The position numbers were made by a program, and so were the translations under genes. A DNA stretch of 64,000 bases from Nitrospirota bacterium (lineage in GTDB: Bacteria; Nitrospirota; UBA9217), in the NCBI GenBank assembly GCA_963818475.1, contig CAWFSF010000006.1:416001-480000 (forward strand). The letters run 5' to 3'. Below the pieces are notes generated by a model. That model was not told where the DNA came from. It saw nothing but the letters and a program-made list of their open reading frames with translations, and did no database searches. Below are positions 3,001 through 30,059 of the stretch, piece by piece; within the stretch, counting starts at the first letter, position 1, and every line of letters starts with the position of its first letter.

Positions 3001-6000
3001 ATTGCCACAGCACGGGCCAGGCCACACCGACTTCGGTGAATCCCGGTACCTGGACTGCAGGCGCAGCGCTGACCTGCGATAGCTGCCACGGCACGGAAGG
3101 CGGAACGGCCTTTGGCGAGCCTGCTTATACCAACGGAGTTCAGCCGGCCGTGGCCGAGAACAATGACAACAGCCATGCCGCGCACGTGACTGCGGCAGCG
3201 GACTGCGTGAATTGCCATACGGACACGGTAAGCGCGACCGGCACGGCGATCAAGGCCGCATCGATACTGCATACGAACCAGGCGCGGAACGTAAACTTCG
3301 CCGCATCCCTGGACACCAACGGCGGAACGAACTCGGACAACTACAATGCCGGTGCCAAGACCTGCTCGTCAATTGTCTGTCATGGAGCAGGAACCCCGAT
3401 GTGGGGCGGCGCGACCCTTGCCTGCGATCAGTGCCATCTGGCGAACAACACCCTGGCCGGCAAGCACGCCAGGCATTACGGCGTGGCAACAGTAGCCGTG
3501 ACCGCGGACAAGACACCGTCAAACACCTCGTCCGCAACGGTCTATGAATACAGCTGCGGCGTCTGCCACAACGCGACGCCCCATGCCACCGGCAACGCAA
3601 GTGCGAACCAGGCGGCCAATGTGGTGTTTGACTCAACCATAGCAGGAGGAGGCACCTATACCGCCGGCGGCGCTCTTGCGGGCACTGATACGGGCGGCAT
3701 GGAGTGGACGAACGGCACCTGCGGGACCACGTACTGCCACAGCCAGGGTGCAAGCACCACGTCTCCGTTCGGCGGAGCGCCGAACAGCACGGCCACCTGG
3801 AACGGTGGGGCCATGAACTGCGAAAGCTGCCACAACTTCAATGCGGCGGCAACGAACAAGATGGCCACGGGCAAGCACACCCAGCACATCAACCAGAGCG
3901 CCGTACTCGGTACGAACTACGGCTGCCAGGAATGTCATAACACGACCACGACCGACGGCACGACTATCACGAATGAGGCAAATCACGTCAACAAGACGCG
4001 TGACGTATCAATGCTCAGGGGCGGCACCTGGACTTCGCCGAACTGCACGGCCACCTATTGCCACAGCACGGGCCAGGCCACACCGACCTCTGTGAACCCG
4101 GGCACCTGGACTGCCGGCGCGGCAATGACCTGCGACAGCTGCCACGGAACGGAAGGCGGAACGGCCTTTGGCGAGCCCGCGTACACCAACGGAGTTCAGC
4201 CGGCCGTGGCCGAGAACAATGACAACAGCCATGCCGCGCACGTGACCGCGGCAATAGATTGCGTGAACTGTCATACGGACACGGTAAGCGCGACCGGTAC
4301 GGCGATAAAGGCCGCATCGATACTGCATACGAACCAGGCGCGGAACGTAAACTTCGCCGCGACCTTGGACAATAACGGCGGCACAAACTCCGACAACTAC
4401 AATGCTGGTGCCAAGACCTGCTCGTCAATTGTCTGCCATGGAGCGGGAACACCCATGTGGGGAGGTGCCTCTCTCAAATGTTCGGATTGCCACAGCGGAG
4501 CGTCCGATGTGGTTGATTACACAAGCAATGGTACCATCGCAACGATCAACAACACGCAGTGGGGCTACTCCGGCCACGGCAAGCCATCGTCAACCTATGA
4601 TATAACGGGCAATACGGCGGCCAACTTCCCTGGCGCGGTCACCACGGGAGATCCTTGCCAGTATTGCCATGACAGCACTGTTGCGCACAATGACGCGAAC
4701 AACCCGCTCAGACTGCGGAACTTCGCCGACGGGACATACGGCAAAAACGGCGTGTGCATGAAGTGTCACGGAACGGGCCAGACGGGCGTGAACCCGGGCA
4801 CGGGCTACTCACTTAAGACCGCCACCAAGAAGGTCGACAAGTACCACTATGCCGCCAAACACGGCGGGAGCTACACAGGCGGTCAGTACTGCTGGGATTG
4901 CCACGACGGCCACGGCGATTCGACCACCACTGCCGGACCCATCGCCATGATCCAGTTGAACCCGGCCAGCGCGTCCAACAGCACGACGGCGATACCCACG
5001 ACCATCGTGTCGACAGCGGTCACGATGACCGGCCGTACTCTTCCATCGAACTACGGCAAGACCGTTACTCCCTTTAACGGCATATGCAACGTCTGCCATA
5101 CCGCGGGGGCGAACGGTCTCAGCAGCCATTACACGTCAACGACGTCGGACGGACACAACTCGACCACGCTCTGCACCGATTGCCATAAGCACAGTGTAAA
5201 TACGACCTATGAAAACAAGGCATGGGAAGGCGCGGGCGGCGATTGTCTCGGGTGCCACAACTCGGCGCAGAGCGATGGCGCCAACACGGACATCGACAAC
5301 AACGGCGTGCGGGTGGTGGCGTCGGAGTTCACCAAACAGTCGCACCATGTAACCGGCAAGACCTTGTCCAAATTCGACTGCGCGGTCTGCCACGGAGAGG
5401 GCGATTATCTGACCGGCAGCACCACGGCGCTGCATAAGAACGGCCAGATCGATCTGCGAAACGCGGACAACGCGAGCGCCTACTATACCTGGACCGGGTC
5501 CGAGCATACGAACATGGATAACTTCTGCATGAGTTGCCATGATGCGAACGGAGCTTCGGTAACCTATTCACGTGATCCGCTGGCGACAAGTCCGAGCAGG
5601 ACGAACCCTTTCGGTGACACGCGTCAGAACTCCTATGACCAGGTTGTGCGCACGGTCGTGGTCGACGTTTTCACGGCATTCAACCCCGGCACAGGCGGCT
5701 CGGGCACCGGCTACAACGGGAATTACTCGCAGCATGCGGTCCGCGGGGCCCGGTATTCCAATGATGCCGATGCCGGCAGCATGTATACGAACGGCCGGTT
5801 TGATGCCGCCTATACGCCGCTCGGTGGAAGTGTGTCCGTACGTGATTCCTCGACGCTCCACTGCGGCGATTGCCATACGAACGGCCAGTATAGTACGGCA
5901 ACCGCGCCGGTGATCGGCGCTCATGGATCGAACAACGAGTACCTGCTCAGGACAATCAACAGCAGTGACGCGGAGCATACCAAGACGACCTACGGCTGCT

Positions 6001-6422
6001 TCAAGTGCCACCTCCTGGCCAGATATAGCGCCACGCACTCTAATGGAAACGCATCTGACTTCGTCGATTCGTCTACGTTGACCGGCATTGCCGGCCGCGC
6101 CGCGAGCAACGCGAACATTACCGGCATTTCCTGCACGAACTGTCATAACTCCGGAGATGCGAAGTTTGGCGGGGTGCACGGTGGCAACGCCACGTACACG
6201 GACAATCAAGGCTATACGGCGAAGACCTACCGGTTCATGCCGGGTTTGGGCAACAACAAGTACTCACCGACGCAGAGCGGGTCAAGCGCGGAAGCAGACT
6301 GGGAACAGCCCACTGCTTACGGATGCTACACTACGCCGACCGCAAATTGGGGAAGCTGCACCAAGCATAGCGGCGGAGCCAAGACGGTGACAAGAGGCCA
6401 ATCACGGAAACTCAGGTACTAA
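3..6422 (+). CDS. Giant multiheme c-type cytochrome, CxxxxCH/CxxCH-repeat (Geobacter-type) family; 5'-truncated by the window edge
   Basis: The frame is open from position 3 (PAWGAGYKNYDNCTVCHG...) into the 174..6422 ORF. By manual count there are about 38 CXXCH and 12 CX4CH motifs, with recurring CX4CH...W...CXXCH...H..H units. The protein is very rich in Thr/Ser/Gly/Ala/Asn. Confidence 0.95.
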   Translation, partial: PAWGAGYKNYDNCTVCHGVPTTGNDGSVISVNPEKTAPGGTGTDTNGDTASTDPQVGMHQAHLTAARNYSDPIACGECHTVPTPATLTTHINDLLPAEVPLAGGLTTTNPRSLPQTPAYSGGQCNNTYCHDYNRFKNGFPDDATPPFATNAPIWNTTLLNGTSADCQQCHGYPPGGSHPQPATDCAGCHPDVAPNNISFSIVYQHINGSIEGGGCNGCHGQSNSTGAPYTYNDRVTTNGGTGHITAGVVGAHQKHVATLLYTDCNLCHAGNTMPTVDSKMTMSFSGIARFGGAPGLYMGKTLAGSPAYVYDPGTISTAGPMSCSNIYCHSDGGNYAGTKVYSSVTWTGAALTCDKCHGNGAGTLVTTNVHPKHVTSYSLGCQECHYNTTTDGATITTPANHVNTVKNVDWKVGGLNAGGSAYARPNCSTIYCHSQGISTTAPYGGAANTTAAWNGTALTCEGCHSYDAAATNKMATGKHTQHINQSAVLGTNYGCQECHNTTTTNGTTITTIANHVNGTRNVSMVRGGTWTSPNCTATYCHSTGQATPTSVNPGTWTAGAALTCDSCHGTEGGTAFGEPAYTNGVQPAVAENNDNSHAAHVTAAADCVNCHTDTVSATGTAIKAASILHTNQARNVNFAASLDTNGGTNSDNYNAGAKTCSSIVCHGAGTPMWGGATLACDQCHLANNTLAGKHARHYGVATVAVTADKTPSNTSSATVYEYSCGVCHNATPHATGNASANQAANVVFDSTIAGGGTYTAGGALAGTDTGGMEWTNGTCGTTYCHSQGASTTSPFGGAPNSTATWNGGAMNCESCHNFNAAATNKMATGKHTAHINDGTIMPNVACSACHTSTTSDSTTITTESNHVNKLRDVTIAATYDSDATPGNNWATSTCSNVYCHSTGEATPTYKPVLWTATITNCEACHNYDAAATNKMATGKHSQHINQSAVLGTNYGCQECHNTTTTNGTTITTPASHVDKVRDVSMLRGGTWTSPNCTATYCHSTGQATPTSVNPGTWTAGAALTCDSCHGTEGGTAFGEPAYTNGVQPAVAENNDNSHAAHVTAAADCVNCHTDTVSATGTAIKAASILHTNQARNVNFAASLDTNGGTNSDNYNAGAKTCSSIVCHGAGTPMWGGATLACDQCHLANNTLAGKHARHYGVATVAVTADKTPSNTSSATVYEYSCGVCHNATPHATGNASANQAANVVFDSTIAGGGTYTAGGALAGTDTGGMEWTNGTCGTTYCHSQGASTTSPFGGAPNSTATWNGGAMNCESCHNFNAAATNKMATGKHTQHINQSAVLGTNYGCQECHNTTTTDGTTITNEANHVNKTRDVSMLRGGTWTSPNCTATYCHSTGQATPTSVNPGTWTAGAAMTCDSCHGTEGGTAFGEPAYTNGVQPAVAENNDNSHAAHVTAAIDCVNCHTDTVSATGTAIKAASILHTNQARNVNFAATLDNNGGTNSDNYNAGAKTCSSIVCHGAGTPMWGGASLKCSDCHSGASDVVDYTSNGTIATINNTQWGYSGHGKPSSTYDITGNTAANFPGAVTTGDPCQYCHDSTVAHNDANNPLRLRNFADGTYGKNGVCMKCHGTGQTGVNPGTGYSLKTATKKVDKYHYAAKHGGSYTGGQYCWDCHDGHGDSTTTAGPIAMIQLNPASASNSTTAIPTTIVSTAVTMTGRTLPSNYGKTVTPFNGICNVCHTAGANGLSSHYTSTTSDGHNSTTLCTDCHKHSVNTTYENKAWEGAGGDCLGCHNSAQSDGANTDIDNNGVRVVASEFTKQSHHVTGKTLSKFDCAVCHGEGDYLTGSTTALHKNGQIDLRNADNASAYYTWTGSEHTNMDNFCMSCHDANGASVTYSRDPLATSPSRTNPFGDTRQNSYDQVVRTVVVDVFTAFNPGTGGSGTGYNGNYSQHAVRGARYSNDADAGSMYTNGRFDAAYTPLGGSVSVRDSSTLHCGDCHTNGQYSTATAPVIGAHGSNNEYLLRTINSSDAEHTKTTYGCFKCHLLARYSATHSNGNASDFVDSSTLTGIAGRAASNANITGISCTNCHNSGDAKFGGVHGGNATYTDNQGYTAKTYRFMPGLGNNKYSPTQSGSSAEADWEQPTAYGCYTTPTANWGSCTKHSGGAKTVTRGQSRKLRY
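1581..2498 (+). repeat. Intragenic direct repeat, copy 1 (~918 bp)
   Basis: Near-identical to 2964..3881 at offset 1383; shadow ORFs such as 1757..1957 and 3140..3340 are identical. Weaker similarity extends back to ~1397 and ~2780. Confidence 0.92.
2964..3881 (+). repeat. Intragenic direct repeat, copy 2
   Basis: Matches 1581..2498; I spotted only one synonymous difference (2420 t vs 3803 c), without a formal alignment. Confidence 0.92.
4020..4462 (+). repeat. Intragenic repeat, partial diverged copy 3
   Basis: Encodes the same GGTWTSPNCTATYCH...CSSIVCHGAGTPMWGG segment at offset 1056 from copy 2, with many synonymous changes. Confidence 0.85.
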
Positions 6423-10729: not shown

Positions 10730-11920
10730 ATGCGCGAACAATTGAAAAACGGCTTTCTCCTTGTATGTTCCGTTGTTCTCGTGCTCCTGATGCTGGAACT
10801 GGCGCTCGCGCTTTTTTGGCCCCATAAAGTCACGTTTCATCCTTATCAGGCGGAACACTGCCAATACGACGAATTCCTGGGATGGGTAAACAAGCCGGAC
10901 CTCGACGGTTTTGTGAAGGTCAGTGACCGGATCGCTTTTCACCGACGACATAACAGCAAAGGCATGCGGAGTCTCAGAGAGACGGGCTATGAGAAGCTGG
11001 CGGGAGTCAAGCGGGTCCTGGTCCTGGGCGATTCGTTCACCTGGGGGTTCGGGGTTGACGATCAACAGGTCCTGACGCACCTTCTCCAGCAAAAGACCGG
11101 AAGCGGGATCGAGATCCTGAACGGGTCGGTCGTCGGCTACGGTACGGACCAGGAATTCTTGTGGCTCGAGCGGGAGGGGTTGCGCTACTTGCCGGATCTG
11201 GTGGTCCTCGCTTTTTATGTCGGCAACGATTATGAAGAGGTATCCCAGTCTCTCTCCTACGGCTATCCCAAGCCGTATTTCGATATTGACGAGCAGGGAC
11301 TGCTTCTCGGCAATGTGCCGGTGCCGGACACCCGGGAAACCCGCCGGAAAGGGTTTGATAAACCTTCATCGATGTTCGGCAGATTCAAGAAATTCCTGCG
11401 TTACAACACGCATACCTATCCGTTTCTTGCCGGTCGCCTCAATTCTATTCCCCGGCTCCGGCATTTTATTCTGAAGACCGGGATCGGCGAGGAGTTCTCG
11501 CGAAATCTGCCGGGCGTTCCCTATCGCCGTGTCGCACCCGAGAAGGTGAAGCCCATTGTCGAAGCCTTGATCCGGTCGATCCGTGACATTGCGGCCAGCC
11601 GGGGAGCGCAGCTCCTCCTGATGCCGATACCGGCGATCGAGGAAAACCCTAATAAGGCGATCGGCTACCGCGGCCAAGTTGACTGGAATGAGGCGTTTGC
11701 GGATAATGAAAAGGAGAATAACTATCTGAAGTCCTTTGCCAGGGCGAACGGGATTCAATTTCTCGACCTGCTGCAGATAATCAGGGCTCAGCACCGAAAG
11801 GGTTTAGCGCTTTATAATATCAACCCGGACGACCATCACTGGAACTCGGAAGGCCATCGGGTTGCCGCAGAGGCTCTGTATGATTGGATCAAAGCATATG
11901 ACTGGAACCGGAAGAAATAA
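10730..11920 (+). CDS. SGNH/GDSL hydrolase-family protein (AlgJ/AlgX-like transferase), membrane anchored
   Basis: N-terminal TM, GDSFTWG (catalytic Ser), GYGTDQ, GND and DDHHWNSEGH. Confidence 0.88.
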   Translation: MREQLKNGFLLVCSVVLVLLMLELALALFWPHKVTFHPYQAEHCQYDEFLGWVNKPDLDGFVKVSDRIAFHRRHNSKGMRSLRETGYEKLAGVKRVLVLGDSFTWGFGVDDQQVLTHLLQQKTGSGIEILNGSVVGYGTDQEFLWLEREGLRYLPDLVVLAFYVGNDYEEVSQSLSYGYPKPYFDIDEQGLLLGNVPVPDTRETRRKGFDKPSSMFGRFKKFLRYNTHTYPFLAGRLNSIPRLRHFILKTGIGEEFSRNLPGVPYRRVAPEKVKPIVEALIRSIRDIAASRGAQLLLMPIPAIEENPNKAIGYRGQVDWNEAFADNEKENNYLKSFARANGIQFLDLLQIIRAQHRKGLALYNINPDDHHWNSEGHRVAAEALYDWIKAYDWNRKK

Positions 11921-12158
11921 CTGCACCGGCGCGCTAACGGACAGAAAAACGCTTGCGAGACGGCTTTTGCATTGGTGGCGCATTTTTGCCGCGGCGCTGG
12001 GGAGAGTGAATACAATGCTGCTTCTCGGTGTTCTGTTTCTTCTTGTGGTCACGCCGATCGGTCTTTTAGGCCGGCTGTTCCGAAAAGAAAAAATTCTGCG
12101 CGGTAATTCCGCCTGGACCTCACGCAGTGACGATGGCACCTATGAAAGGCAGTTTTGA
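11898..12158 (+). CDS. SxtJ-family small membrane protein
   Basis: WWRIFAAALGRVNTMLLLGVLFLLVVTPIGLLGRLF...YERQF, directly upstream of a carbamoyltransferase. Start uncertain. Confidence 0.75.
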   Translation: MTGTGRNNCTGALTDRKTLARRLLHWWRIFAAALGRVNTMLLLGVLFLLVVTPIGLLGRLFRKEKILRGNSAWTSRSDDGTYERQF

Positions 12159-13847
12159 ATGCATATCCTGGGTCTGTCCTGTTTCTATCACGACGCGGCA
12201 GCATGCCTTATCCATGATGGGAAACTGGTTGCCGCTGCCCAGGAGGAGCGCTTTTCCCGGGTCAAGCATGACTGGCGGTTTCCGGAAAAAGCCATTCAAT
12301 ACTGTCTTAGCGAAGCGGGGATATCGGTCGACGATGTCTCCCTCGTGGCATTTTATGAAAAGCCGATTTTAAAGTTCGAGAGGGTCCTCGAGACCTTTCT
12401 TGCTGTCGCGCCGCGCGGGATCCTGGCCTTCATGGAAACCATCCCCTCCTGGTTGAACCAGAAGCTCCGGGTCCCCGATATTATCCGCAAGAATCTGGGC
12501 TACCGGGGTCCTCTTATCTTCGTTGAACACCACATGGCACACGCTGCGAGCAGTTTTTTTTTCTCTCCCTTTGACGAAGCCGCTGTCCTGGTCCTGGACG
12601 GCGTAGGTGAGTGGGCTACTGCCTCCTATGGAACGGGGAATGGCAACCGATTGTCGCTTTCTCATGAAGTTACTTTTCCTCATTCTCTCGGCCTTTTATA
12701 CAGCGCGTTTACCGCATATCTCGGTTTTGAAGTTAACGATGCCGAATACAAGGTAATGGGCATGGCCTCCTATGGATCGCCCGTTTTCCGGGAAACGATC
12801 ACGCAAAATCTGGCGCATATCAACCCGGACGGCAGCCTGACGTTAAATATGAAGTATTTCTCCTTTCAGCACGGGAAAAAGATGTTTAACGGCCACTTCG
12901 AGCGTCTGTTCGGAAGTCCCGGCCGGACGCCTGAATCGGAACTTTTGCAAAAGCATTTCGACATCGCCGCCAGTATTCAGGCCGTAACCGAAGATGTCGT
13001 GCTTTCCATGGCCCGTTATGTGCATCAGCAGACCGGTATGCGGTGTTTATGCCTGGCTGGCGGGGTGGCCTTGAACAGCGTGAGCAACGGCAAGCTGCTG
13101 CGGGAAGGGCCTTTTGACGAGCTGTTCATTCAGCCGGCTGCGGGAGATGCGGGGGCCGCCCTGGGAGCGGCCTATGCGGGGCATCACCTGTACTTAAAAA
13201 AAGAAGAGCGGCACCGGCTTGGCAATGTGTACCTCGGTCCCTTTTATCAAGACGCAGATCCCTCATCGCTAGCCGGGCCTGGTGTGCTTACGCGTATATT
13301 GGACGATCCTCTTCTGGTTGAGGAAGTCGCCCGGCTCCTTTCAGAGGGGAAGGTCATCGGGTGGCACCAGGGGAGGATGGAGTTCGGCCCTCGCGCTCTG
13401 GGGAACAGGAGTATCCTGGCTGACCCGCGTAAATCCGGCATGAAGGACACCGTGAACAGGATGGTCAAGTTCCGTGAAGCCTTCAGGCCTTTTGCGCCGG
13501 TTGTTACGGTGGAAGACGCAGAACGTTTTTTCTCTATTCGTGGAGAGAGTCCCTTCATGCTCTTGACCTTTCCGGTCAAAACCGATAAACTTCCGGCAGT
13601 GACGCACGTTGACGGCTCCGCGCGGGTCCAGACCGTGTCAAAGGAGCAGAACGAAAAACTCTATGCCCTGCTTCGCGCTTTTGAGCGGCTTACCGGCGTG
13701 CCGGTGCTGCTCAATACCTCGCTGAATCTGCGGGGCGAACCGATCGCCTGCTCTCCCGAGGATGCATATCACTGTTTTGTCCGGAGCGGCATGGACGGCC
13801 TGGTTGTCGGACAGGCCTTGTTCATGAAGGAAGCGGCATCCCCGTAA
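12159..13847 (+). CDS. O-carbamoyltransferase (NodU/CmcH/TobZ/SxtI family)
   Basis: HDAAAC...QEERFSRVKH, EHHMAHAAS, DGVGE, EYKVMGMA, AGGVALN, EFGPRALGNRSIL, FRPFAP, HVDGSARVQTV and LLNTSLN. Confidence 0.95.
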   Translation: MHILGLSCFYHDAAACLIHDGKLVAAAQEERFSRVKHDWRFPEKAIQYCLSEAGISVDDVSLVAFYEKPILKFERVLETFLAVAPRGILAFMETIPSWLNQKLRVPDIIRKNLGYRGPLIFVEHHMAHAASSFFFSPFDEAAVLVLDGVGEWATASYGTGNGNRLSLSHEVTFPHSLGLLYSAFTAYLGFEVNDAEYKVMGMASYGSPVFRETITQNLAHINPDGSLTLNMKYFSFQHGKKMFNGHFERLFGSPGRTPESELLQKHFDIAASIQAVTEDVVLSMARYVHQQTGMRCLCLAGGVALNSVSNGKLLREGPFDELFIQPAAGDAGAALGAAYAGHHLYLKKEERHRLGNVYLGPFYQDADPSSLAGPGVLTRILDDPLLVEEVARLLSEGKVIGWHQGRMEFGPRALGNRSILADPRKSGMKDTVNRMVKFREAFRPFAPVVTVEDAERFFSIRGESPFMLLTFPVKTDKLPAVTHVDGSARVQTVSKEQNEKLYALLRAFERLTGVPVLLNTSLNLRGEPIACSPEDAYHCFVRSGMDGLVVGQALFMKEAASP

Positions 13848-13904
13848 CGGTATCCGCGGACTGCGCAGAGGAAGACATTCACAGATGCATAAATGAGGTG
13901 GCTT

Positions 13905-14063
13905 ATGGGACACATCACACTTCTCAAGGAATTATGGGCATTTCTCCGGGTCAGGAAAAAATACTGGCTCCTCCCTATTATTTTCATGCTGCTGCTGCTG
14001 GGCGCTTTGATCGTATTCACGGAAGGCAGCGCCCTTTCGCCATTCATCTATATTCTTTTCTAA
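13905..14063 (+). CDS. DUF5989/SxtK-like 52-aa membrane peptide (below the ORF-track cutoff)
   Basis: MGHITLLKELWAFLRVRKKYWLLPIIFMLLLLGALIVFTEGSALSPFIYILF*, with RBS GAGGTG at 13895-13900. Confidence 0.88.
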   Translation: MGHITLLKELWAFLRVRKKYWLLPIIFMLLLLGALIVFTEGSALSPFIYILF

Positions 14064-14503: not shown

Positions 14504-16915
14504 ATGAATGGTCTGTCGCAGGATAGGTTTGCTACCCGGCGTTTAGGCCTTGTCATTTTCATCATAGCCGCGCTGATCTATCTGAATTCCCTGTCGAATG
14601 GCTTCGTCTGGGATGATACTCCTATCATCTCTCAAAACCGCCTGCTGACCGGTCTGGAAAATCTGCCCCGCCTGATCGCCTCCCCGGACAGTGCTCCCGG
14701 CATCGGCACAACTTACTATCGGCCCGTCACGTATCTCTCTTTTTTTGTGAACCGGATGACCGGTGGGGAAAATCCTTTCGGCTTTCATCTGGTAAATATT
14801 CTGCTGCATGCCGCGGTATCCCTGGCGCTGTTCGCTCTCATCACCCTGCTGTTCGGTGACCGTCTCCTTGCGTTCCTGGCGGCAATCCTTTTTGCAGCAC
14901 ATCCGATCAATTCGGAAACGGTCAATTTTCTCTCCGGCGGCAGGAACACCCTGCTCTCGGCGCTGTTTGCGCTACTCACGTTCATCGACTACGTCAAAGG
15001 ACGCAGCCGCAGATCGCTGCTTTGGTTCAGCCTGTCGGTCTTCTCAAAGGAATTCGGACTGGTTTTGCCATTGATGCTGTATGCCCATGACCGGTTGGTC
15101 AGCAGGGAGCGGAAACCTTTCGGCGCCTACGCGCCTTATATCGCGGTTGTTGTTCTGTACCTCGCGGCCCGGACGGTTGTTCTGAAGGGCGCCGGGACCC
15201 TTGACCTCGAGATCCTCGGCGACCGGCTGTTGTTCGTTCCCCGTCAGTTTGCCGACTACCTGCGGGTGCTCCTGTTCTCGGTCGTGCCGCAATTGCCGGG
15301 CAGAACGGAGCTTCCCCTGGCCCTTGATGGGGGCGCCGGTATCGCGGCCCTGATTCTTATTGGCGCCGGAGTTTTTTTCTACCGGTTCCGGTCATTCCCG
15401 GTAGTGCGCTTTGCGGGGTTCTGGCTGCTGCTTTTTTTCCTCCCGGTCAGCAACATTCTTCCCATCGGCTATACTCTTATGGCTGACAGATACGCCTATT
15501 TCATGTCCATGGCCGTGAGCCTGCTCATTGCTTTTGCGCTTCTTTCGGTTTTCCGGAACAGGCAAAAGGCCATTGCGGTCGCTGCACTGATGTGCATAGT
15601 GTTCAGCGTCATGGTCGTGCGTCGCAATATGGTATGGCGCAGCGACGAAACGCTCTATCGGCAAATGATCGTTGATTCACCCGATTCAAGCATCGGCTAC
15701 TATAATCTCGGTCTGCTTCTCTATGAAAAAGGAGAAACGGAACAGGCACTGAATCATCTGCAAAAAGCCGCCTCCACGGTCCCCTATTCCAGTGACGCTC
15801 CCTACCTGCTCGGGTTCGCGTCGGCTGAACTGGGCATGATCGACAATGCGCTGTCTTCATTCCATAAGACCATAGCCCGGGACCCGGAGCATTTTATGGC
15901 ATACCTTCTGCTCAGCCGCCTTTATGAAAGCCGGGGAGACCACGTTTTGGCCGAATCATACCGCTCCAAAGCGCTGGAGCTGTTGCCGAACCTGGAAAGA
16001 ATTATTTCCCCGCGTGCCGAAAGGATAGCAGGCGATGCATGGAGAATGCAGGCCCGTGGAGCGATGGCAAATGCAAAGTCTCTTTTTCAGAGGGCGCTGC
16101 TGTTCGATCCCCTGTTCCCCGAAGCACTCGTAGGATTGACCGCGATTCAGCCGGGAAAGGGCGATTCAGACCCCGGTCCGTTCTTTGAACAGTCCGATAA
16201 CTGCTCTAAGTGCCACTCAATGAGGGAGGCCTATGACAGCTGGAAAGCGTCACCGCATTCAAGGGCCGGATGCCTCGAATGCCACGAGTACGATGCAAAG
16301 CGTATGGCGGGCAATCAGCTTAATCATCTCGAAGGAAATCACGGTGCGAAACACAGAACTATTGTCAATAGAGCGTCTTGCCTTGCCAAGGGATGCCACG
16401 AACAGAGATTGACCGACCCGATCGTTCGTTATTCACGCAGGGATATATTCTTTGATCATACTCATGCAACAGGGATGCGGCGGGGGATCATCTCACTGCG
16501 TTGCCGGAGTTGCCATGCTGAAGTCGGGCATGGAAAAGAAAAAAACGTGGCTAAGGAAGTGTGTTTTCTCTGCCATTTCAAAAATACGGGTAAACCGCAA
16601 CAGGCCTTTACCGGCTGTCCCTCCTGTCATCCGGCCCCGAAGGGGAATATTGTCTTCAAAGGAATGGTTTTTTCGCACGAGAAAAAGCTGCGGCAAGGCT
16701 ATACGTGCCAGGACTGCCATAGGAAAGTTGTGAAGGGGAACGGTAATGTCCCGAGAGAGCGCTGCAGCCATTGCCACCCCGACAGGTCCGCGAAATACGG
16801 TGATAAGGCGTTGATCCACAAAAAACATGTGGAGGGGATGCAGATCTACTGCTTTGAATGCCACGAAAAGATCGAGCACGGGAAGATCGAAGTCTCGGAT
16901 CGAAGCCGCAAATAG
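14504..16915 (+). CDS. TMTC-like GT-C glycosyltransferase + TPR fused to a C-terminal nonaheme cytochrome c domain
   Basis: GT-C motifs FVWDD, YYRP, HPINSETV, GGRNTLL, SKE, ADRYAY and RRNMVW, then TPRs, then CSKCH, CLECH, CLAKGCH, CRSCH, CFLCH, CPSCH, CQDCH, CSHCH and CFECH in one uninterrupted frame. Confidence 0.88.
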   Translation: MNGLSQDRFATRRLGLVIFIIAALIYLNSLSNGFVWDDTPIISQNRLLTGLENLPRLIASPDSAPGIGTTYYRPVTYLSFFVNRMTGGENPFGFHLVNILLHAAVSLALFALITLLFGDRLLAFLAAILFAAHPINSETVNFLSGGRNTLLSALFALLTFIDYVKGRSRRSLLWFSLSVFSKEFGLVLPLMLYAHDRLVSRERKPFGAYAPYIAVVVLYLAARTVVLKGAGTLDLEILGDRLLFVPRQFADYLRVLLFSVVPQLPGRTELPLALDGGAGIAALILIGAGVFFYRFRSFPVVRFAGFWLLLFFLPVSNILPIGYTLMADRYAYFMSMAVSLLIAFALLSVFRNRQKAIAVAALMCIVFSVMVVRRNMVWRSDETLYRQMIVDSPDSSIGYYNLGLLLYEKGETEQALNHLQKAASTVPYSSDAPYLLGFASAELGMIDNALSSFHKTIARDPEHFMAYLLLSRLYESRGDHVLAESYRSKALELLPNLERIISPRAERIAGDAWRMQARGAMANAKSLFQRALLFDPLFPEALVGLTAIQPGKGDSDPGPFFEQSDNCSKCHSMREAYDSWKASPHSRAGCLECHEYDAKRMAGNQLNHLEGNHGAKHRTIVNRASCLAKGCHEQRLTDPIVRYSRRDIFFDHTHATGMRRGIISLRCRSCHAEVGHGKEKNVAKEVCFLCHFKNTGKPQQAFTGCPSCHPAPKGNIVFKGMVFSHEKKLRQGYTCQDCHRKVVKGNGNVPRERCSHCHPDRSAKYGDKALIHKKHVEGMQIYCFECHEKIEHGKIEVSDRSRK

Positions 16916-16967: not shown

Positions 16968-18137
16968 CTATTTTGCCAGGTTGTCATCCCTCAGTTTCCC
17001 GGAGATGGCCCTGGCCGCGTAGCGGTGTCCCTCGGCGTTGAAATGATCGTCCATGGGGTGGTACAGGGGCACGCCTTTTCGGGCTGCGGACCTGATCGCC
17101 GGGAGGAGGTCGAGGTAGCTGACTCCGTTCACGTCCGAAAACATTCGCAGGTGATACGCCATTACGTCGTTTTCCTCCCCTTCGATAATAATCCGCTTAT
17201 AGCCGAGGCGGGCGTCGGGTAATTCCTCCTTGCCGGGGATATGCACGAGCAGGAACCCTGCCCCGTTCAGCCGCGCGACAGCGCGCATTTCCCGTATAAG
17301 GGCAAAGGTCAGATCCATTTTGTCTTCGATACTGGGAAGTTCGTAGTAGGATAGGCCGGCATATTTTTTTGTATATTCTTCTCCAAGCCCTGTCGCAAGG
17401 AACAGGCTCCTGAGGAAGGGAACCGAATTTAAGCGGCCCACCAGAAAATTGTACGAGTGGATATTACGGCGAAGGAATTTTTTCAATTTGCCGAAGGCCG
17501 TCGGGGGGTTGTCGAACATCTTCCTCTCTATCTCGGTGGTGTGGGGCACCGGTGTGAACATGAGCCTGAGCGGGGAGCCGAGGCCGAACATGGGCTTGGG
17601 ATACCCATAGCTGATATTCGCGCCATTTTCGCCCACGTCGTTTCCGTAAAAAGCGTAGATGACGACGTCCGGTTGATATTTCAGCCCTTCTTCAAGCAGG
17701 AAGAGGAGGGATTGGTCGGTGCCGTATCCGGAACACCCCATGTTAATGACCTCCGTACCGGTGAGTTCCCGGTTGAGCACCTCTGAAAAAGTTTCGTTAT
17801 CATCGACCGCGGAACCCCAGGCAAAGGAATCCCCTATGACCGCGATCCGCCTCACACCAGGTGGTTTTTCGTAATCCGCTTCGTGCGCCCTCAGCCCCTT
17901 GCTGTTGATGGTCACGTAGGTCGAAAAGTCGGTTGAAGAGAAAACTCCTTCCGTCAGCGGCTTGTTTCTCCAGCCCAGCACGCGGTCGTATTGGCAGAAA
18001 TACCGTTGGATGAAGAATGGCCTGGCAATGAATTTGGAGGGATGGAAGAGGACGAGAGTAATTTCCAGGAAAATAAGGAAAAAGAGGACGCTTCCAAGGA
18101 GCAACAAGGCATTTATGGTCCGTTGCTTAAGTCTCAC
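16968..18137 (-). CDS. SGNH/GDSL hydrolase-family protein, paralog of 10730..11920
   Basis: GDSFAWG, GYGTDQ, GND, SYGYPKP and DDHFNAEGH; shares FGKLKKFLR...GRLNS with the paralog. Confidence 0.88.
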   Translation of the reverse strand: MRLKQRTINALLLLGSVLFFLIFLEITLVLFHPSKFIARPFFIQRYFCQYDRVLGWRNKPLTEGVFSSTDFSTYVTINSKGLRAHEADYEKPPGVRRIAVIGDSFAWGSAVDDNETFSEVLNRELTGTEVINMGCSGYGTDQSLLFLLEEGLKYQPDVVIYAFYGNDVGENGANISYGYPKPMFGLGSPLRLMFTPVPHTTEIERKMFDNPPTAFGKLKKFLRRNIHSYNFLVGRLNSVPFLRSLFLATGLGEEYTKKYAGLSYYELPSIEDKMDLTFALIREMRAVARLNGAGFLLVHIPGKEELPDARLGYKRIIIEGEENDVMAYHLRMFSDVNGVSYLDLLPAIRSAARKGVPLYHPMDDHFNAEGHRYAARAISGKLRDDNLAK

Positions 18138-18227: not shown

Positions 18228-18245
18228 GTAGCATTGCTCTTCTCT

Positions 18246-19067
18246 ATGAAGGTAAAAATTAAAAATAAAAAGCTCAAAATCGTCTTTTTTTTATGCCTCG
18301 CTTTCGCGGTATTTGCCATCCTGGCATTCGCCATTACCAGTGTTGTTTTCAAAAATCCCGACAACTGCATCAAATGTCACTACATGAGGCCTTTTTATGA
18401 CACCTGGAAGTCCTCGGCCCATGCGGGATCCGGCTGCCTTACCTGCCATGATTACGGACCTACGCGAATGATCGGAAATCAACTCAAGTATCTTGCCGGC
18501 ACGTATAACCCGAAACCCCGGACCATTGTGCCGAGGCTGGTTTGTATTGCCGAGGGGTGTCATGACGAGCGACTGGTGGATCCGGTCGTCAAATACTCGC
18601 GCAGGGGGATCTTTTTCAGCCATACTCACGCGACCGAGGTGAGGAGGGACATCATCAAACTTCGATGCCGCAGTTGCCACGTGAGTGTGGGCCATTCGAA
18701 AGGGAAAAGCGTCGCAAAGGAGGTCTGCTTTATCTGCCATTTTATCAATACGGGCGACCTCCAGAAGGCGGTGACGGGCTGTCCGTCGTGTCATCCCTCA
18801 CCGAAGGGGGATATCCTCCACGACGGCAAGAGGTTCTCCCACGAGGCGGCGCTCCGGAAAGGCCGTGTGTGCAGAGATTGCCATGTAAAAATCGTAAAGG
18901 GAAGAGGGGAAGTCCCCCGGGAACGCTGCCATCTTTGCCACGTAGACCGGTTTGACAAATACGGCGATAAAGCGCTGATCCATAAAAAACATGTGGAGGA
19001 CCTGCAGATATACTGTCTTTACTGTCATGAAAAAATCGAACATGGAAAGATAGAAGTCTCGCATTGA
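18246..19067 (+). CDS. Membrane-anchored nonaheme cytochrome c (NapC/NirT-like N-terminus)
   Basis: N-terminal TM, then CIKCH(YM), CLTCH, CIAEGCH, CRSCH, CFICH, CPSCH, CRDCH, CHLCH and CLYCH. Confidence 0.92.
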   Translation: MKVKIKNKKLKIVFFLCLAFAVFAILAFAITSVVFKNPDNCIKCHYMRPFYDTWKSSAHAGSGCLTCHDYGPTRMIGNQLKYLAGTYNPKPRTIVPRLVCIAEGCHDERLVDPVVKYSRRGIFFSHTHATEVRRDIIKLRCRSCHVSVGHSKGKSVAKEVCFICHFINTGDLQKAVTGCPSCHPSPKGDILHDGKRFSHEAALRKGRVCRDCHVKIVKGRGEVPRERCHLCHVDRFDKYGDKALIHKKHVEDLQIYCLYCHEKIEHGKIEVSH

Positions 19068-19077
19068 CCGGCTGGCT

Positions 19078-20733
19078 ATGAGCGAGCAGGAACGCCGTCC
19101 AGTTCTCCGCTACCTTGCCCTCGTCGTTTTTATCGCGGCTGGTTTGCTCTATGTAAATTCGCTTGGTAATGGATTCGTCTGGGACGATTCTTTTATCATC
19201 GTCCAGAACCCCCTGATGCAGGGAATAAAAAATCTGCCTCGTCTCCTGGTTTCCGAGGACACGTTCCCCGGGGTACGGATCGGATGTTACCGTCCCGTCG
19301 CCTATTTCAGTTTTTTTCTCAACCGCCTGATCGGGGGCGGGGGCCCCTTCAGTTTTCATCTCGTAAATCTGCTGCTCCATGCCACAATATCCGCGGCGTT
19401 GTATGTCCTGATCGCCAGGCTGTTTCAGGACCACGTCCTGGGGTTCCTTGCGGCACTCCTCTTTGCCGCCCATCCGATCAACGCGGAAACCGTCAATTTT
19501 CTGTCGGGCGGCAGGAACACCCTCCTTGCCGCGCTGTTTACACTCATGTCTTTTATCACCTATGCGCGGGGACAGCGCCGCTGGTCCATCGTCTGGTTCG
19601 GCCTTTCGGCCTTCTCCAAGGAATTCGGTCTGATCACGCCGGCGATGCTGTATGTTTATGACCGCTTCGTAAAAAAGGAACGGAAGCCCTTCAGGAACTA
19701 CGCTCCCTATATTGCAGCGGGTGTCGTGTACCTCGCTGTCCGGAGCTTTGTTCTGGGCGGTGTCGGCCCCCTGGGGCTCGAAGCTCTCGGCAGCCGGCTT
19801 CTGTTCGTCCCCCGGCTTTTCGCGGACTACATGCGTGTGTTCCTGTTTGCCGTCCAGCCGAAACTCCCTCGCTGGACTGAGTTTCCAGAGGCGTTCGATA
19901 CCGTCGCCATCACCGCCGTGCTGGCTCTTTTCGCCGTAGGAGCGCTTATTTATTGGTTCCGGTCTTTCCCGGCAATCCGCTTTTCCGGCTTCTGGCTGCT
20001 GTTGTATTTTCTTCCTGCTGCCAACATTCAGCCGATCGGTTATATTCTGATGGCCGACCGGCATGCGTATTTCATGTCCATGGGCATCAGCCTGCTGGCG
20101 GCTTTTACAGTTCTCCGTCTGTTCCGGAGCGATCGGCGGGCGATGGCCACGGTCGTCGTTGTTTGTTTGCTGTTCAGTGCCATGGTTGTCCGGCGCAATG
20201 CCGCCTGGCGCAGCAATGAAACACTCTATCGCCAGATGATCGCCGATGCTCCCGACTCCAGCATCGGCTACCAGAATCTGGGAATGCTCCTCTACGACAG
20301 CGGGGAATCGGAGCAGGCGTTGGCCCCGCTTGAACGGGCCGTGGCCACGTCCCCGGTGTCCGAAGACGCGTTGTTTGCGCTCGGCACGTTGTACGCCGAA
20401 CTCGGCATGCCCGACAGGGCGGTAGTCTCCTTGCAAAAAACAGCGGCCCTGAATCCCGATGATTTCAGGGTTTTCCTCATGCTCAGCCGGCTTTATGAGG
20501 GCAGGGGAGAACTCGCGCTAGCGAGGTCGTATCGCGATAAAGCACTTGGGCTCATGCCGCAAATAGAGCGGATTCTCGCTCTCCGCGCGAAACGAATGTT
20601 CGAGCAGGCTGAGGAGGCACGGGCACTTGGCAGCGTCATGAAGGCCGAACGATTTTACCGCCGGGCGTTGCTCTATGACCCCCAGTCCGCGGCCGCACAG
20701 GCCGGACTGAGGGCAGTCGTCACGGAGAAATAA
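19078..20733 (+). CDS. TMTC-like GT-C glycosyltransferase with C-terminal TPRs
   Basis: FVWDD, YRP, HPINAETVNFLSGGRNTLL, SKEFG, ADRHAY and RRNAAW, then TPRs; close paralog of the N-terminal part of 14504..16915. Confidence 0.85.
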   Translation: MSEQERRPVLRYLALVVFIAAGLLYVNSLGNGFVWDDSFIIVQNPLMQGIKNLPRLLVSEDTFPGVRIGCYRPVAYFSFFLNRLIGGGGPFSFHLVNLLLHATISAALYVLIARLFQDHVLGFLAALLFAAHPINAETVNFLSGGRNTLLAALFTLMSFITYARGQRRWSIVWFGLSAFSKEFGLITPAMLYVYDRFVKKERKPFRNYAPYIAAGVVYLAVRSFVLGGVGPLGLEALGSRLLFVPRLFADYMRVFLFAVQPKLPRWTEFPEAFDTVAITAVLALFAVGALIYWFRSFPAIRFSGFWLLLYFLPAANIQPIGYILMADRHAYFMSMGISLLAAFTVLRLFRSDRRAMATVVVVCLLFSAMVVRRNAAWRSNETLYRQMIADAPDSSIGYQNLGMLLYDSGESEQALAPLERAVATSPVSEDALFALGTLYAELGMPDRAVVSLQKTAALNPDDFRVFLMLSRLYEGRGELALARSYRDKALGLMPQIERILALRAKRMFEQAEEARALGSVMKAERFYRRALLYDPQSAAAQAGLRAVVTEK

Positions 20734-20889: not shown

Positions 20890-21630
20890 ATGTTGCGCAC
20901 AAGAATGGTTTGGATAATCGCGGTTGCGATACTTCTTTTTTTCCTTGCTACAACGTTCTTCCTGGACCTCAAAGGGCGGAGCGCAAGGTCTTACGGTGAA
21001 CGAGTCCATGATGTTTCGGAAACCCAATTGCCGGTGACCATGATCGCCAGTTCGGGAGAATTGTATCGTCTTTATAAATCCCGCGGTGTGCAGGGAAGGC
21101 TTTTGGTACATATCGGAACGCACCTGCATTTCGTCGACGGCAATGATGACAAAGGACCTTTTTCGCCGCTGCCCCGTCCAGACGCTTTGGGCGTTCTCCA
21201 CGCATACGAACAACGGATAGACTATACTAATGTGTTCTGGGTGGCGATGCAGGCGAATATCGTTCGCGGAATTTATTACGTTTTGCCGGACCAGGTATAT
21301 CAGGAAATAAGAAAGGCGGCGCGCGAGGACGACTTTGATATTGCTTACATGGATACGGAACGTATTGTGGCCCATGAATGGGGTTTCCGCCGCGAAATTT
21401 CCAATTCAATCCCCGTTCTTCCCGAACCGGTGCTGTTGAACATTGACGCCTCGGTGTTCGAGTATCGGGAAGTGTCCGATATCCTTCGCATGGTTAAGCA
21501 GTCGCGCTTGAAAGCCGATCTTATTACGGCGAACCTGTCGGAGGACAGCCCGGACGTATCGCCGGCAAGCAGGGGGAAAATGAGGTTGTTCATATCGCTC
21601 TTGACCGGGGGGGGCAGTGGAAAACAATAA
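20890..21630 (+). CDS. Membrane-anchored protein with a probable degenerate arginase/UPF0489-like fold
   Basis: N-terminal TM, GRLLVHIGTHLH, IVRGIYYVLP and PVLLNIDASVF; paralog of 28121..28723. The fold is inferred. Confidence 0.5.
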   Translation: MLRTRMVWIIAVAILLFFLATTFFLDLKGRSARSYGERVHDVSETQLPVTMIASSGELYRLYKSRGVQGRLLVHIGTHLHFVDGNDDKGPFSPLPRPDALGVLHAYEQRIDYTNVFWVAMQANIVRGIYYVLPDQVYQEIRKAAREDDFDIAYMDTERIVAHEWGFRREISNSIPVLPEPVLLNIDASVFEYREVSDILRMVKQSRLKADLITANLSEDSPDVSPASRGKMRLFISLLTGGGSGKQ

Positions 21631-22843
21631 AAAAGAGTTTCTTGCGCTGCTGCTGTTAATAACCCTGCTTGGCATATGTCTCCGCGTATATGGGGTCTTC
21701 GGGCAGCCTCTCCTGGAGGACGAAACTCTGATGGCCTCCACGGCGCGCAATTACATGGAGCGGGGACATTTCGTGCCTTCCATGCCTCACCACCCCAATT
21801 TGCGCAATATCCTTGTTTTTTTGTCCATGAATACGTTCGGTGAGAACGGCCTCGGGGTACGGTTCTTCAGCCTTCTCTTCGGTATCCTGAGCGTCCCGCT
21901 TCTGGGGCTCCTGCTGTACAGGCTGACCTCGAATGTAACCGCTTCCAGCCTGGCCGCGTTTTTCCTTGCAGTGGATCCCGTCCATATCCTCTACAGCAGG
22001 CACGCCATCCAAGAGGTCCATACGGCATTTTTTTTCCTCGCAGGCACGCTTCTCTTTGTCCATGCGGCGACCCGGAACGATCGTTGGTGGCTTCTACCGG
22101 CAAGCGGGGTATTTTTCGGGTTCGGACTCGCGTCCAAGGCCCATGCCGCATTCCCGCTCCTCGTCTGCCTGGTCTCTGTGTTTTTATCAGCGAAGGAGTT
22201 GAGAAAGAAAGAGTTTCGTATCCTGGCGGTAGTATCTCTTACGGTGCTGCCCCTCACGGTGTTCATGCTGACCGATGCAGCGTGGTTCAGCCGGGGGTAT
22301 GATCTTGCCGACTGGCTGTTCATGAGAAAAACGCTCATTGGCCCCATGACGGCGAAATTTACCCCGCCGACCACGGAAATCAATGTGGACACGTTGGCCT
22401 GGCAGTGGTTCCTTGTTCCCTTTCTCGGGTATCATGAATTTTCCTATGGCAGCGGAAAACCGGTTCTCTTTGTCGCCATGGGGAACCCTCTTGTCTGGAT
22501 GCTCGTGCTGCCCGCCGCTTTTTATATCCTGTACAGGTGGAGGAGCATACAAGGCGCATTGTTTATGCAGGCCCTCTTCTGGCTTTCCTATCTGCCGCTC
22601 GTAGTTGCTCCCCGAAGAATATTTCTACTTTCGTCCATAGCAGTCACGCCCTTCGCCTATGGTCTCGTAGGTCTCGCGGTTTCCCATGCGGCAACGCGTT
22701 GGGGGAAAAAAATAGTATATGTCTATCTCGGCGCTGTTCTGGCAATAAGCCTGCTGCTGTACCCTTTGACCTTGGGGCAGGGATGGAATTATCAGTACCT
22801 CCGTCCGATGGTAGAACGATTTAATCCCCATCAAAACCGTTAA
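21617..22843 (+). CDS. PMT/ArnT-like (GT39/GT83) membrane glycosyltransferase
   Basis: EDE loop, HHPNL, GVRFFS, YSR, ASK, WQWF and GNPLVW, with many TM helices. Confidence 0.8.
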   Translation: MENNKKEFLALLLLITLLGICLRVYGVFGQPLLEDETLMASTARNYMERGHFVPSMPHHPNLRNILVFLSMNTFGENGLGVRFFSLLFGILSVPLLGLLLYRLTSNVTASSLAAFFLAVDPVHILYSRHAIQEVHTAFFFLAGTLLFVHAATRNDRWWLLPASGVFFGFGLASKAHAAFPLLVCLVSVFLSAKELRKKEFRILAVVSLTVLPLTVFMLTDAAWFSRGYDLADWLFMRKTLIGPMTAKFTPPTTEINVDTLAWQWFLVPFLGYHEFSYGSGKPVLFVAMGNPLVWMLVLPAAFYILYRWRSIQGALFMQALFWLSYLPLVVAPRRIFLLSSIAVTPFAYGLVGLAVSHAATRWGKKIVYVYLGAVLAISLLLYPLTLGQGWNYQYLRPMVERFNPHQNR

Positions 22844-22961: not shown

Positions 22962-23001
22962 AGCATACTCGGGCAGAATGCCTCACTTTGAAAGGAGTAT
23001 T

Positions 23002-23838
23002 ATGTCTCCCGTAGAAACCGTCTTATTCTGGATATGTCTTCTTGCCTATGCATTGGCAACAGGCGGATATATCTATTCGTTTGTCTTCAAAAACGAAAAG
23101 GTCCTTCCCAAGCTGATGCTCCTGGTTACGGTTGGTTTTGTTCTCCATACCGCTACTATCGCTGCGCGATATTACGCCCAAGGGCATCTTCCCTGGAGCG
23201 GAGATTATGAAAACGGGCTCATGGGGGGCTGGTTCGTCATGGTATTGACGGTGTATGTCGTACGGCAGCAGAAACAACTCCAGGCACTGGCGGCGGTGAC
23301 TGTGCCTTTTACCCTGTTAATGATGGGCTTCGGCGTAATGCGGAACCCGACACTCGGGCCCATGGCGGCTTCTCTCAAGTCCTTCTGGCTGTTGATCCAC
23401 GTATATTTCGCCTGGCTGGCTTTCGGAGCGTTCGCGCTCGCCATGGCCGCCGGCATTCTTTATTTGCTCAAGGAAAAAGACGCTGCGCAGCCGGCACAAA
23501 ACCCGGTTTATGGTCGTTTTCCCTCTATCACCAGACTCGATGAATTGATGTTTCGCTACATAATCTTCGGGTTCATCACCGATGCTATCATGATCGCCGC
23601 GGGCGCCATCTGGGCCAAGGATTTGTGGGGAAGCTACTGGAGCTGGGACCCGGTCGAGACGTGGTCCCTGGTGTCATGGCTCATGTACGGCATCATCATC
23701 CATCTCCGCATGACCTTCGGGTGGCGGGGCCGAAGGCTTTCCTGGCTGACGATTTTCGCTATCGTCGGCATGATCATCACCTTTTTCGGCGTCAACTTCG
23801 TCGTCGAAAGCAGCTTCCACCTTTTTAACGTCAGATGA
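23002..23838 (+). CDS. resC: Cytochrome c synthase subunit ResC/CcsA (system II)
   Basis: WWD motif GAIWAKDLWGSYWSWDPVETW, plus conserved His residues in WLLIHV, IIIHLR and SFHLF. Confidence 0.95.
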   Translation: MSPVETVLFWICLLAYALATGGYIYSFVFKNEKVLPKLMLLVTVGFVLHTATIAARYYAQGHLPWSGDYENGLMGGWFVMVLTVYVVRQQKQLQALAAVTVPFTLLMMGFGVMRNPTLGPMAASLKSFWLLIHVYFAWLAFGAFALAMAAGILYLLKEKDAAQPAQNPVYGRFPSITRLDELMFRYIIFGFITDAIMIAAGAIWAKDLWGSYWSWDPVETWSLVSWLMYGIIIHLRMTFGWRGRRLSWLTIFAIVGMIITFFGVNFVVESSFHLFNVR

Positions 23839-29958: not shown

Positions 29959-30059
29959 CGCGTTGCCGTCTCAAACCCTTCCCCACCACGTAAAGATATT
30001 ATTCTCTCCGCGGCTTTACCAAATGCAAGTATGCCGGAGTTTATGGCGGTAACTATGAT

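Follow-up and report, generated by a model that had tools for sequence, protein, structure and literature searches.

A possible carbamoyl-tyrosine relay joining an SxtI/J/K-type carbamoylation module to outward-facing SGNH proteins in a Nitrospirota bacterium

Known systems and the Nitrospirota locus

DltX and the tails of MBOATs carry FXYXXF, the motif published for acyl shuttles. NgPatA is reported to end in FIYANF, with its tyrosine handing acetyl to PatB. DltX of L. plantarum is described as a microprotein of about 50 amino acids (aa) that ends in FIYNEF; its tail peptide binds to the outer domain of DltD, which has 425 aa and a single N-terminal helix. The saxitoxin cluster is described as containing sxtI-sxtJ-sxtK-sxtL, which encode a carbamoyltransferase (CT), SxtJ (405 bp), SxtK (165 bp), and a GDSL-type SxtL (1281 bp). 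Papers from 2009 to 2026 treat SxtJ and SxtK as partners of SxtI that are still uncharacterised, and SxtL has been proposed in print as a decarbamoylase. In the literature we searched, FXYXXF appeared in the PatAB work only, and we found neither a link of a CT to this shuttle motif nor a mention of DUF5989. Here we describe four genes between positions 10730 and 14063 of a 64,000-nucleotide (nt) stretch of DNA, hereafter the window, from a Nitrospirota bacterium (UBA9217; GCA_963818475.1, contig CAWFSF010000006.1, 416,001-480,000 of the forward strand); positions are numbered within the window unless a contig is named. By analogy with the systems above, we tentatively favour a reading in which this SxtI/J/K-type carbamoylation module and an outward SGNH enzyme would form a carbamoyl-tyrosine relay that works without an MBOAT or AT3 protein.

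The first gene (SGNH1; 10730..11920, + strand) encodes 396 aa from its ATG, with the longest open reading frame (ORF) beginning at GTG 10712. The protein has an N-terminal membrane helix and a predicted outward-facing SGNH/GDSL domain, with GDS at residues 100-102 and D368 and H370 in a DxHW block. On the same strand follow a short SxtJ-like membrane protein (11898..12158; 86 aa, or 98 aa if begun at TTG 11862), which consists of the long third helix and C-terminal tail only and ends in YERQF; a CT of the GdmN/NovN/TobZ O-carbamoyltransferase type (12159..13847; 562 aa), with a Kae1-like N domain and a YrdC-like C domain and predicted to be cytoplasmic; and an SxtK-type DUF5989 microprotein (13905..14063; 52 aa) with a basic N-terminal helix, one 20-residue membrane span, and the tail TEGSALSPFIYILF-COOH. 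SGNH1 and the SxtJ-like gene overlap by 23 nt (stop to ATG), the CT ATG abuts the SxtJ TGA, 57 nt separate the CT from the peptide gene, and a Shine-Dalgarno sequence, GAGGTG, lies 6 nt 5' of the peptide ATG. These junctions fit an operon of four co-oriented genes. A paralog of SGNH1 with 43% identity and the same architecture (SGNH2; 389 aa) is encoded at 16968..18137 on the - strand.

An earlier note on this DNA had described the four co-oriented genes, the second SGNH paralog, and a window free of MBOAT genes. The ORFs and Pfam matches bear out the genes at the positions it gave, and no MBOAT was found in the 64-kb window. The sole MBOAT match of the genome lies about 740 kb from the locus, has its own FLYFNF tail, and adjoins a gene judged by eye from its sequence to be AlgX-like. 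This MBOAT (contig C6, about 1,170,000-1,174,000) is split over two frames, as a 448-aa ORF without the shuttle tail and, overlapping it in another frame, a 104-aa ORF that ends in FLYFNF; the split is a frameshift or an assembly error.

The window operon has the same four kinds of genes as sxtI-sxtJ-sxtK-sxtL, with the same sizes. Unlike the saxitoxin cluster, it has no other sxt genes around it, and its neighbours encode glycosyltransferases and cytochromes. By size, order, and Pfam naming only, SxtK would be a DUF5989 protein and SxtL a member of the SGNH family found in the window.

The likeness to the Dlt system extends to three components. Both have a single-span microprotein of about 50 aa with a C-terminal FxYxxF (FIYNEF in DltX, FIYILF in the window), a partner of about 400 aa with one N-terminal helix and an outward SGNH-type domain (425 aa in DltD, 396 aa in SGNH1), and a cytoplasmic, ATP-dependent activating enzyme upstream. 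By analogy, the window peptide is a mirror of DltX in size, predicted topology, and tail, as SGNH1 is of DltD. The window locus differs in having neither an MBOAT nor a carrier protein, in having a small SxtJ in place of DltB, and in the group that would be transferred, carbamoyl rather than D-alanyl. It also belongs to a system found in Gram-negative phyla, cyanobacteria, SAR11-type genomes, and phages, whereas Dlt is a system of Firmicutes.

The same terminal motif after a membrane helix is shared with the PatA/PatB and AlgI/AlgJ/AlgX systems (FIYANF in NgPatA; F[IL]YFxF in MBOAT tails), and five of the six MBOATs of two trio-bearing genomes ended in F[IL]YF[QE]F. In MBOAT-SGNH O-acetylation, however, the motif is part of the MBOAT and the donor is acetyl-CoA, whereas in the window it is carried by a free-standing peptide and the donor would be carbamoyl-AMP.

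The tyrosine-tailed microprotein and its conserved partners

The window peptide matched DUF5989 (PF19451) over profile positions 2-49 of 49 (1e-23; 83.6 bits against a cut-off of 27) and is the single DUF5989 copy in its genome. It ends in SPFIYILF. Relatives were abundant, with 619 found by a word-indexed search and 3028 cluster representatives by a full scan at E<=0.001. The pattern F.Y..F formed the C-terminal end of 118 of the 120 relatives listed from the word-indexed search and of 121 of the 150 best representatives; 28 of these 150 had the motif followed by an odd extension and one ended in FIYTFS. Pooled, the exact FxYxxF end was present in 239 of 270 database relatives. In a diverse alignment of 13 sequences, R17, K18, W21, L22, P24, P46, F47, I48, Y49, and F52 were invariant, and PF[IV]Y was carried by all 80 genome loci fetched. 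The conserved C-terminal tyrosine on which the earlier note had staked its proposal is therefore real: it was invariant in the relatives inspected. A terminal F.Y..F was found in 2 of 21,870 ORFs of at least 45 aa in the bacterium's own genome, about the expectation from composition, and the weight of the motif thus rests on family-wide conservation and not on a single match.

Conservation was not limited to the tail. The peptide is 55-83% identical over its full 52 aa across more than 10 phyla. It is usually present in one copy, also in SAR11-type and picocyanobacterial genomes. In a divergent picocyanobacterial clade, PFIY is retained but the sequence ends in TII. In 112 sequences, an uncharged span of 20 residues was flanked by a charge of +3.8 on its N side and of -1.7 on its C side. 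Under the established positive-inside rule this bias predicts an N-in/C-out peptide with its tail outside, the orientation that the earlier note had assumed, and so the peptide tail and the SGNH domain are predicted to lie on the same, outer side of the membrane. Five fused or longer forms of the peptide all resembled mis-called starts or read-through, and none was a convincing fusion to CT, SxtJ, or SGNH. A search of the ESM Atlas returned no usable match.

The CT was assigned by strong matches to PF02543 (2.1e-92) and PF16861 (3.5e-71), and its residues 8-558 aligned full-length to GdmN (6e-104) and to TobZ (6e-84). Members of this family are cytoplasmic enzymes that use carbamoyl phosphate and ATP to make carbamoyl-AMP, and from family membership only the window CT is predicted to transfer carbamoyl from the same substrates. 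Its translation contains the GPRALG stretch, a motif named in published work.

The SxtJ-like protein is less complete. It matched PF19588 (1.6e-6; 29.2 bits against a cut-off of 24.4) only at profile positions 51-93 of 99, and an alignment with 55 relatives showed that its 86 aa lack the first two helices of full-length SxtJ, so it is not the three-helix protein of about 135 aa expected of the family. A full-length relative modelled as two short helices, a 44-residue third helix, and a loose tail. A similarly short SxtJ occurred in one other locus (L078) with the same gene order.

A scan of species genomes for the peptide confirmed 581 of 600 pattern matches, and the locus counts given here refer to the best 80 loci, from more than 10 phyla. 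Fifty-six loci had 3 kb of sequence to either side, and in 50 of these CT and SxtJ lay beside the peptide; in the remainder, three had SxtJ adjacent and CT farther off, one had CT only, and two had neither. All five genomes whose peptide has no adjacent CT encoded one elsewhere. CT, SxtJ, and the peptide are a conserved trio. Dedicated carbamoyl-phosphate synthase genes adjoined the trio in four loci (L056, L070, L074, and L093). The last of these, a second locus in the L070 genome, has a CT-peptide pair followed by both carbamoyl-phosphate synthase subunits, by two or three genes of the SGNH family, of which Pfam calls only one, and by two GH18 genes, the second with a type IX secretion system (T9SS) sorting tail.

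Phages carry counterparts of this arrangement. A viral scan with the CT alignment confirmed 589 of 601 pattern matches, and phage counts refer to the best 80 loci; scans with the SGNH alignment and with a single CT sequence confirmed 0 of 79 and 0 of 2 stretches, respectively. In 17 of the 80 loci, the same type of CT was followed by a lysine-rich 38-aa peptide that has no membrane span and ends in DPF[ITV]Y[NK]H (e.g., DPFIYNH). This peptide began 2-100 nt 3' of the CT in the 14 cases measured and farther downstream in the other three. SxtJ was found in two of the 80 phage loci, DUF5989 in one, and the SGNH profile in four, while a soluble 207-aa GDSL protein was present in two phage loci examined. 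The loci with the soluble peptide also encode radical-SAM and 2-oxoglutarate (2OG)-oxygenase proteins. SxtJ accompanies the membrane form of the peptide only. Because a soluble PFIY peptide lies beside the phage CT, the tyrosine tail accompanies the enzyme with or without a membrane anchor; the phage peptides tie the tail to the CT itself, without settling the tail's role. A reading in which the peptide is an anchor and nothing more, which we at first thought likeliest, was marked down in view of these soluble peptides.

Twelve phage loci had further small tyrosine-tailed ORFs near the CT, among them a 24-aa ORF ending in FLYINI 33 nt after the CT, a 23-aa ORF ending in FISYIQ, and a 64-aa acidic protein ending in EGSAENFVYVYEH. 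Some of these may be chance ORFs in AT-rich DNA.

The SGNH proteins and their association with the trio

Both SGNH proteins of the window were recognised by Pfam. SGNH1 matched Lipase_GDSL_2 (8.6e-10), Lipase_GDSL (4.6e-8), and ALGX (3.9e-7; 30.5 bits), and SGNH2 matched Lipase_GDSL_2 (7.5e-12) and ALGX (2.9e-8; 34.2 bits); the ALGX matches exceeded the cut-off of 26.5 and covered the C-terminal region only. SGNH1 has 1120 relatives, and in the family alignment (A2) G100, D101, S102, and H370 were invariant and G136 and D368 nearly so. SGNH2 retains all the family invariants (row 51 of this alignment) and was the second-best match of its genome to the SGNH family (1.1e-141). An AlphaFold2 model of SGNH1 (pLDDT 92.7) consists of an N-terminal helix at residues 3-29, a small beta subdomain, and the SGNH core. 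Both proteins are thus predicted to be outward-facing SGNH-type domains on an N-terminal anchor, as a partner in an acyl shuttle would be. The anchor helix of the family has a nearly invariant Glu23 and Pro31 (SGNH1 numbering, same alignment). Conserved acidic residues are uncommon within membrane anchors, and this one might pair with the helix of a partner.

The best matches of the SGNH profile among Protein Data Bank (PDB) sequences were AlgJ (3e-12) and AlgX (7e-11), which are partners of the MBOAT AlgI. The match, at residues 272-392, covers their catalytic-His region with the DxHW sequence, while the N-terminal GDS half matches ordinary GDSL esterases. Unlike AlgX, in which the catalytic residues come in a different order, SGNH1 has the canonical N-terminal GDS serine as its nucleophile.

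By structure, the closest solved fold to SGNH1 was that of CgnD (Foldseek 3.5e-9; Z 21.7, root-mean-square deviation 3.4, 250 residues aligned), followed by a next best Z of 16.3 and by many SGNH esterases at Z 14-16. CgnD is reported as the hydrolase of the crocagin pathway, a slow leader peptidase that acts on a natural-product precursor, and its cluster also encodes a carbamoyltransferase, CgnI. The sequence similarity of CgnD and SGNH1 is marginal (0.0031). A predicted complex of SGNH1 with the peptide scored 0.02 (mark 0.32), a result that weighs neither for nor against binding.

In a profile search, 23 of the 80 loci had an SGNH-family gene no more than 300 nt from the trio, and 28 had one no more than 2 kb away; when only the 55 loci flanked by 2 kb or more were counted, these numbers were 18 and 22. 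In a scan of flanking genes, SGNH was the commonest neighbour of the trio, and no other neighbour recurred as often. Tail variants showed no link with SGNH adjacency among the 80 loci. In small cyanobacterial genomes (1.7-2.5 Mb), the tail was PFIYT[IV]I in eight of nine loci and VFVYPFF in the other; these loci had the order peptide-SxtJ-CT, none of the nine had an SGNH gene within 4 kb, and one 1.7-Mb genome carried two trios 5.8 kb apart. In two further loci, an AT3-family acyltransferase gene adjoined the peptide, or the trio and an SGNH gene.

The distribution of peptide and SGNH across whole genomes was also correlated. Of 401 cyanobacterial genomes, 50 had both the peptide and an SGNH match at E<=1e-25, none had SGNH only, 24 had the peptide only, and 327 had neither. 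Among 301 genomes of the bacterium's own phylum, the same threshold gave 43 with both, five with SGNH only, 44 with the peptide only, and 209 with neither; at E<=1e-15 these numbers were 70, nine, 17, and 205. The own-phylum odds ratio was about 94, kinship between genomes ignored. The SGNH gene lay within 50 nt of the peptide gene in at least 25 of the 74 peptide-bearing cyanobacterial genomes and within 1 kb in at least 33 (lower bounds, from comparing 64 of 150 listed SGNH places, with 36 further places outside the listing); examples paired a peptide frame of about 54 codons with an SGNH frame of about 421 codons. Genomes with one trio had up to six SGNH paralogs, and in three of five genomes with trio and SGNH no MBOAT was found (genome completeness not established). 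The co-occurrence of DUF5989, NodU-type CT, and SGNH genes, a check named in the earlier note, was thus observed, with the trio together in 50 of 56 loci and SGNH co-distributed with the peptide and often its immediate neighbour.

A proposed carbamoyl-tyrosine relay and its alternatives

The relay we favour would begin with the cytoplasmic CT, which would make carbamoyl-AMP from carbamoyl phosphate and ATP and put the carbamoyl group on the invariant Tyr49 of the DUF5989 microprotein. The basic N-terminal helix of the microprotein would lie at the cytoplasmic face with CT and SxtJ, and its PFIYxLF tail at the outer face, with SxtJ as a membrane partner that enables loading or presentation of the tail. 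More speculatively, the tail might be loaded before its insertion, or the short tail might be flipped across with the help of SxtJ. The membrane-anchored SGNH proteins would then take the carbamoyl on the GDS serine and hand it to hydroxyls of envelope glycans, for which the products of the PMT-type glycosyltransferases encoded nearby are candidate acceptors. The MBOAT-free carbamoyl shuttle put forward in the earlier note is partly supported, by the invariant C-terminal tyrosine, its predicted outer location, the lack of a linked MBOAT, the co-distribution with SGNH, and the parallel with sxtI-J-K-L. Homology to DltX could not be shown, and many trio loci or genomes have no nearby or strong SGNH match.

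Several observations weigh against the relay. With the CT in the cytoplasm and Tyr49 predicted outside, the tyrosine cannot reach the active site; no route is evident by which an ATP-dependent cytoplasmic enzyme would load a residue across the membrane, and at 86-138 aa SxtJ is a small protein to serve as a conduit. The solved CT relatives GdmN, NovN, and TobZ act directly on small-molecule hydroxyls and are not known to use a carrier, and carbamoyl-serine enzymes usually persist for long, a property that would slow a relay. No homology between DUF5989 and DltX was detected: the peptide profile gave only a chance match among PDB sequences (E 3.1), and five DUF5989 peptides searched against Pfam at E<=10 matched DUF5989 only and not DltX (PF12459), in a search where HMMER filters drop most weak matches. 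Profile-profile comparison of DUF5989 with the phage 38-mers aligned PFIY alone (probability 14.6%), so their homology is not shown. After CgnD, the nearest folds to SGNH1 are ordinary esterases, with PatB at rank 22 (Z 13.9) and OatA at rank 44 (Z 12.4), and the fold therefore cannot tell a transferase from a hydrolase. The genomic association is also imperfect. SGNH was not adjacent in 57 of the 80 loci, the peptide occurred without a strong SGNH match in 24 of 74 cyanobacterial and 17-44 of 87 own-phylum genomes, and SGNH occurred without the peptide in 5-9 own-phylum genomes. In two genomes, seven SGNH paralog loci lay away from any trio, some beside sulfatase or PMT_2 genes. Finally, related genomes are not independent, and raw Fisher values overstate the association between peptide and SGNH.

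The membrane-crossing problem would be sidestepped if no covalent relay existed and SxtJ and DUF5989 simply held the CT at the membrane, where a lipid-linked glycan or a metabolite for export would be modified cytoplasmically. The outer tail of the peptide would then dock the SGNH protein, a hydrolase that, like SxtL in its proposed role, trims or removes carbamoyl or acyl groups from the exported product. We consider this scaffold rather unlikely, with evidence on both sides. Direct modification is what the solved CT relatives do, most fold neighbours of SGNH1 are esterases, SxtL has been proposed as a decarbamoylase, and a hydrolase acting on the product would likewise occur only alongside the trio. 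However, soluble phage peptides with the PFIY core lie beside the same type of CT, which means that the tail cannot have anchoring as its core function. A scaffold would also leave the exact match to the acyl-shuttle motif a coincidence, and up to six SGNH paralogs per trio suit acceptor-specific transferases better than a single trimming enzyme.

The microprotein could instead be a substrate rather than a carrier, with its precursor tail modified by the CT and cut by a CgnD-like SGNH protein to yield a small tyrosine-derived product, as in crocagin biosynthesis; mycofactocin-type pathways offer a further parallel for a tyrosine-derived product made from a precursor peptide. The position of CgnD as the closest solved fold to SGNH1, well ahead of the next (Z 21.7 and 16.3), and the radical-SAM and 2OG-oxygenase genes in phage loci with the soluble peptide speak for this pathway. 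We nevertheless judge it improbable: a mostly single-copy peptide conserved over its whole length (55-83% identity across more than 10 phyla) resembles machinery, and a membrane span with outward SGNH paralogs beside glycosyltransferases suits envelope modification. CgnD is moreover reported to be a very slow peptidase in vitro, which puzzled the authors of that work. That the SGNH genes are unrelated neighbours, with the trio acting alone and the esterase-fold proteins serving another envelope pathway, would account for the 57 of 80 loci without an adjacent SGNH and for paralogs beside sulfatase or PMT_2 genes elsewhere, but is highly improbable given that 0 of 50 strong cyanobacterial SGNH matches lacked the peptide, the own-phylum odds ratio of about 94 (kinship ignored), the gap of 50 nt or less in at least 25 of 74 cyanobacterial genomes, and the overlap of the SGNH1 and SxtJ genes in the window.

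The carbamoyl-tyrosine relay has a broader form, which we hold to be somewhat doubtful. In it, tyrosine relays would include a third class that needs neither MBOAT nor AT3 proteins: an ATP-dependent CT would load the invariant tyrosine of a PFIY-tailed microprotein, from which CgnD/AlgJ-like SGNH enzymes would pass carbamoyl to their targets. Such a system would be ancient and very widespread, with members in more than 10 phyla, SAR11-type and picocyanobacterial genomes among them, and soluble versions in phages, and SxtJ, SxtK, and SxtL would acquire their long-missing roles.

The surroundings of the operon are rich in glycosyltransferase and cytochrome genes. At 14504-16915 lies an unusual glycosyltransferase-cytochrome fusion, an 803-aa protein that combines a PMT/GT-C-like membrane domain, TPR repeats, and a C-terminal NrfH/NapC-like multihaem cytochrome. 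Its split counterpart adjoins SGNH2 as a 277-aa cytochrome followed by a 551-aa GT-C/TPR protein (18234-19067 and 19078-20733). Farther out (174-6422, 21617-22843, 22978-25237, and 28710-29993) are a multihaem cytochrome of more than 2000 aa, two further PMT/PMT_2 glycosyltransferases, and CcsA/ResB-type cytochrome-maturation genes. Given these surroundings, the module may decorate glycans attached to extracellular cytochromes. DUF5989 was found in none of five other genomes of the same genus (65-92% complete) and in 9 of 63 of its family, a patchy distribution that may reflect horizontal transfer.

Should the relay prove wrong, a new and solid genomic association would remain in the strict dependence of one SGNH family on a peptide of 52 aa. 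If the relay is right, the acyl-tyrosine mechanism just established for D-alanylation and O-acetylation would be widened to carbamoyl, a new group for it, and to a loading enzyme of a new kind, and its direct prediction is a carbamoyl-Tyr49 on the microprotein. The carriage of the same CT by phages together with a tyrosine-tailed peptide would be accounted for, and O-carbamoylated envelope glycans would be predicted in very abundant environmental bacteria.

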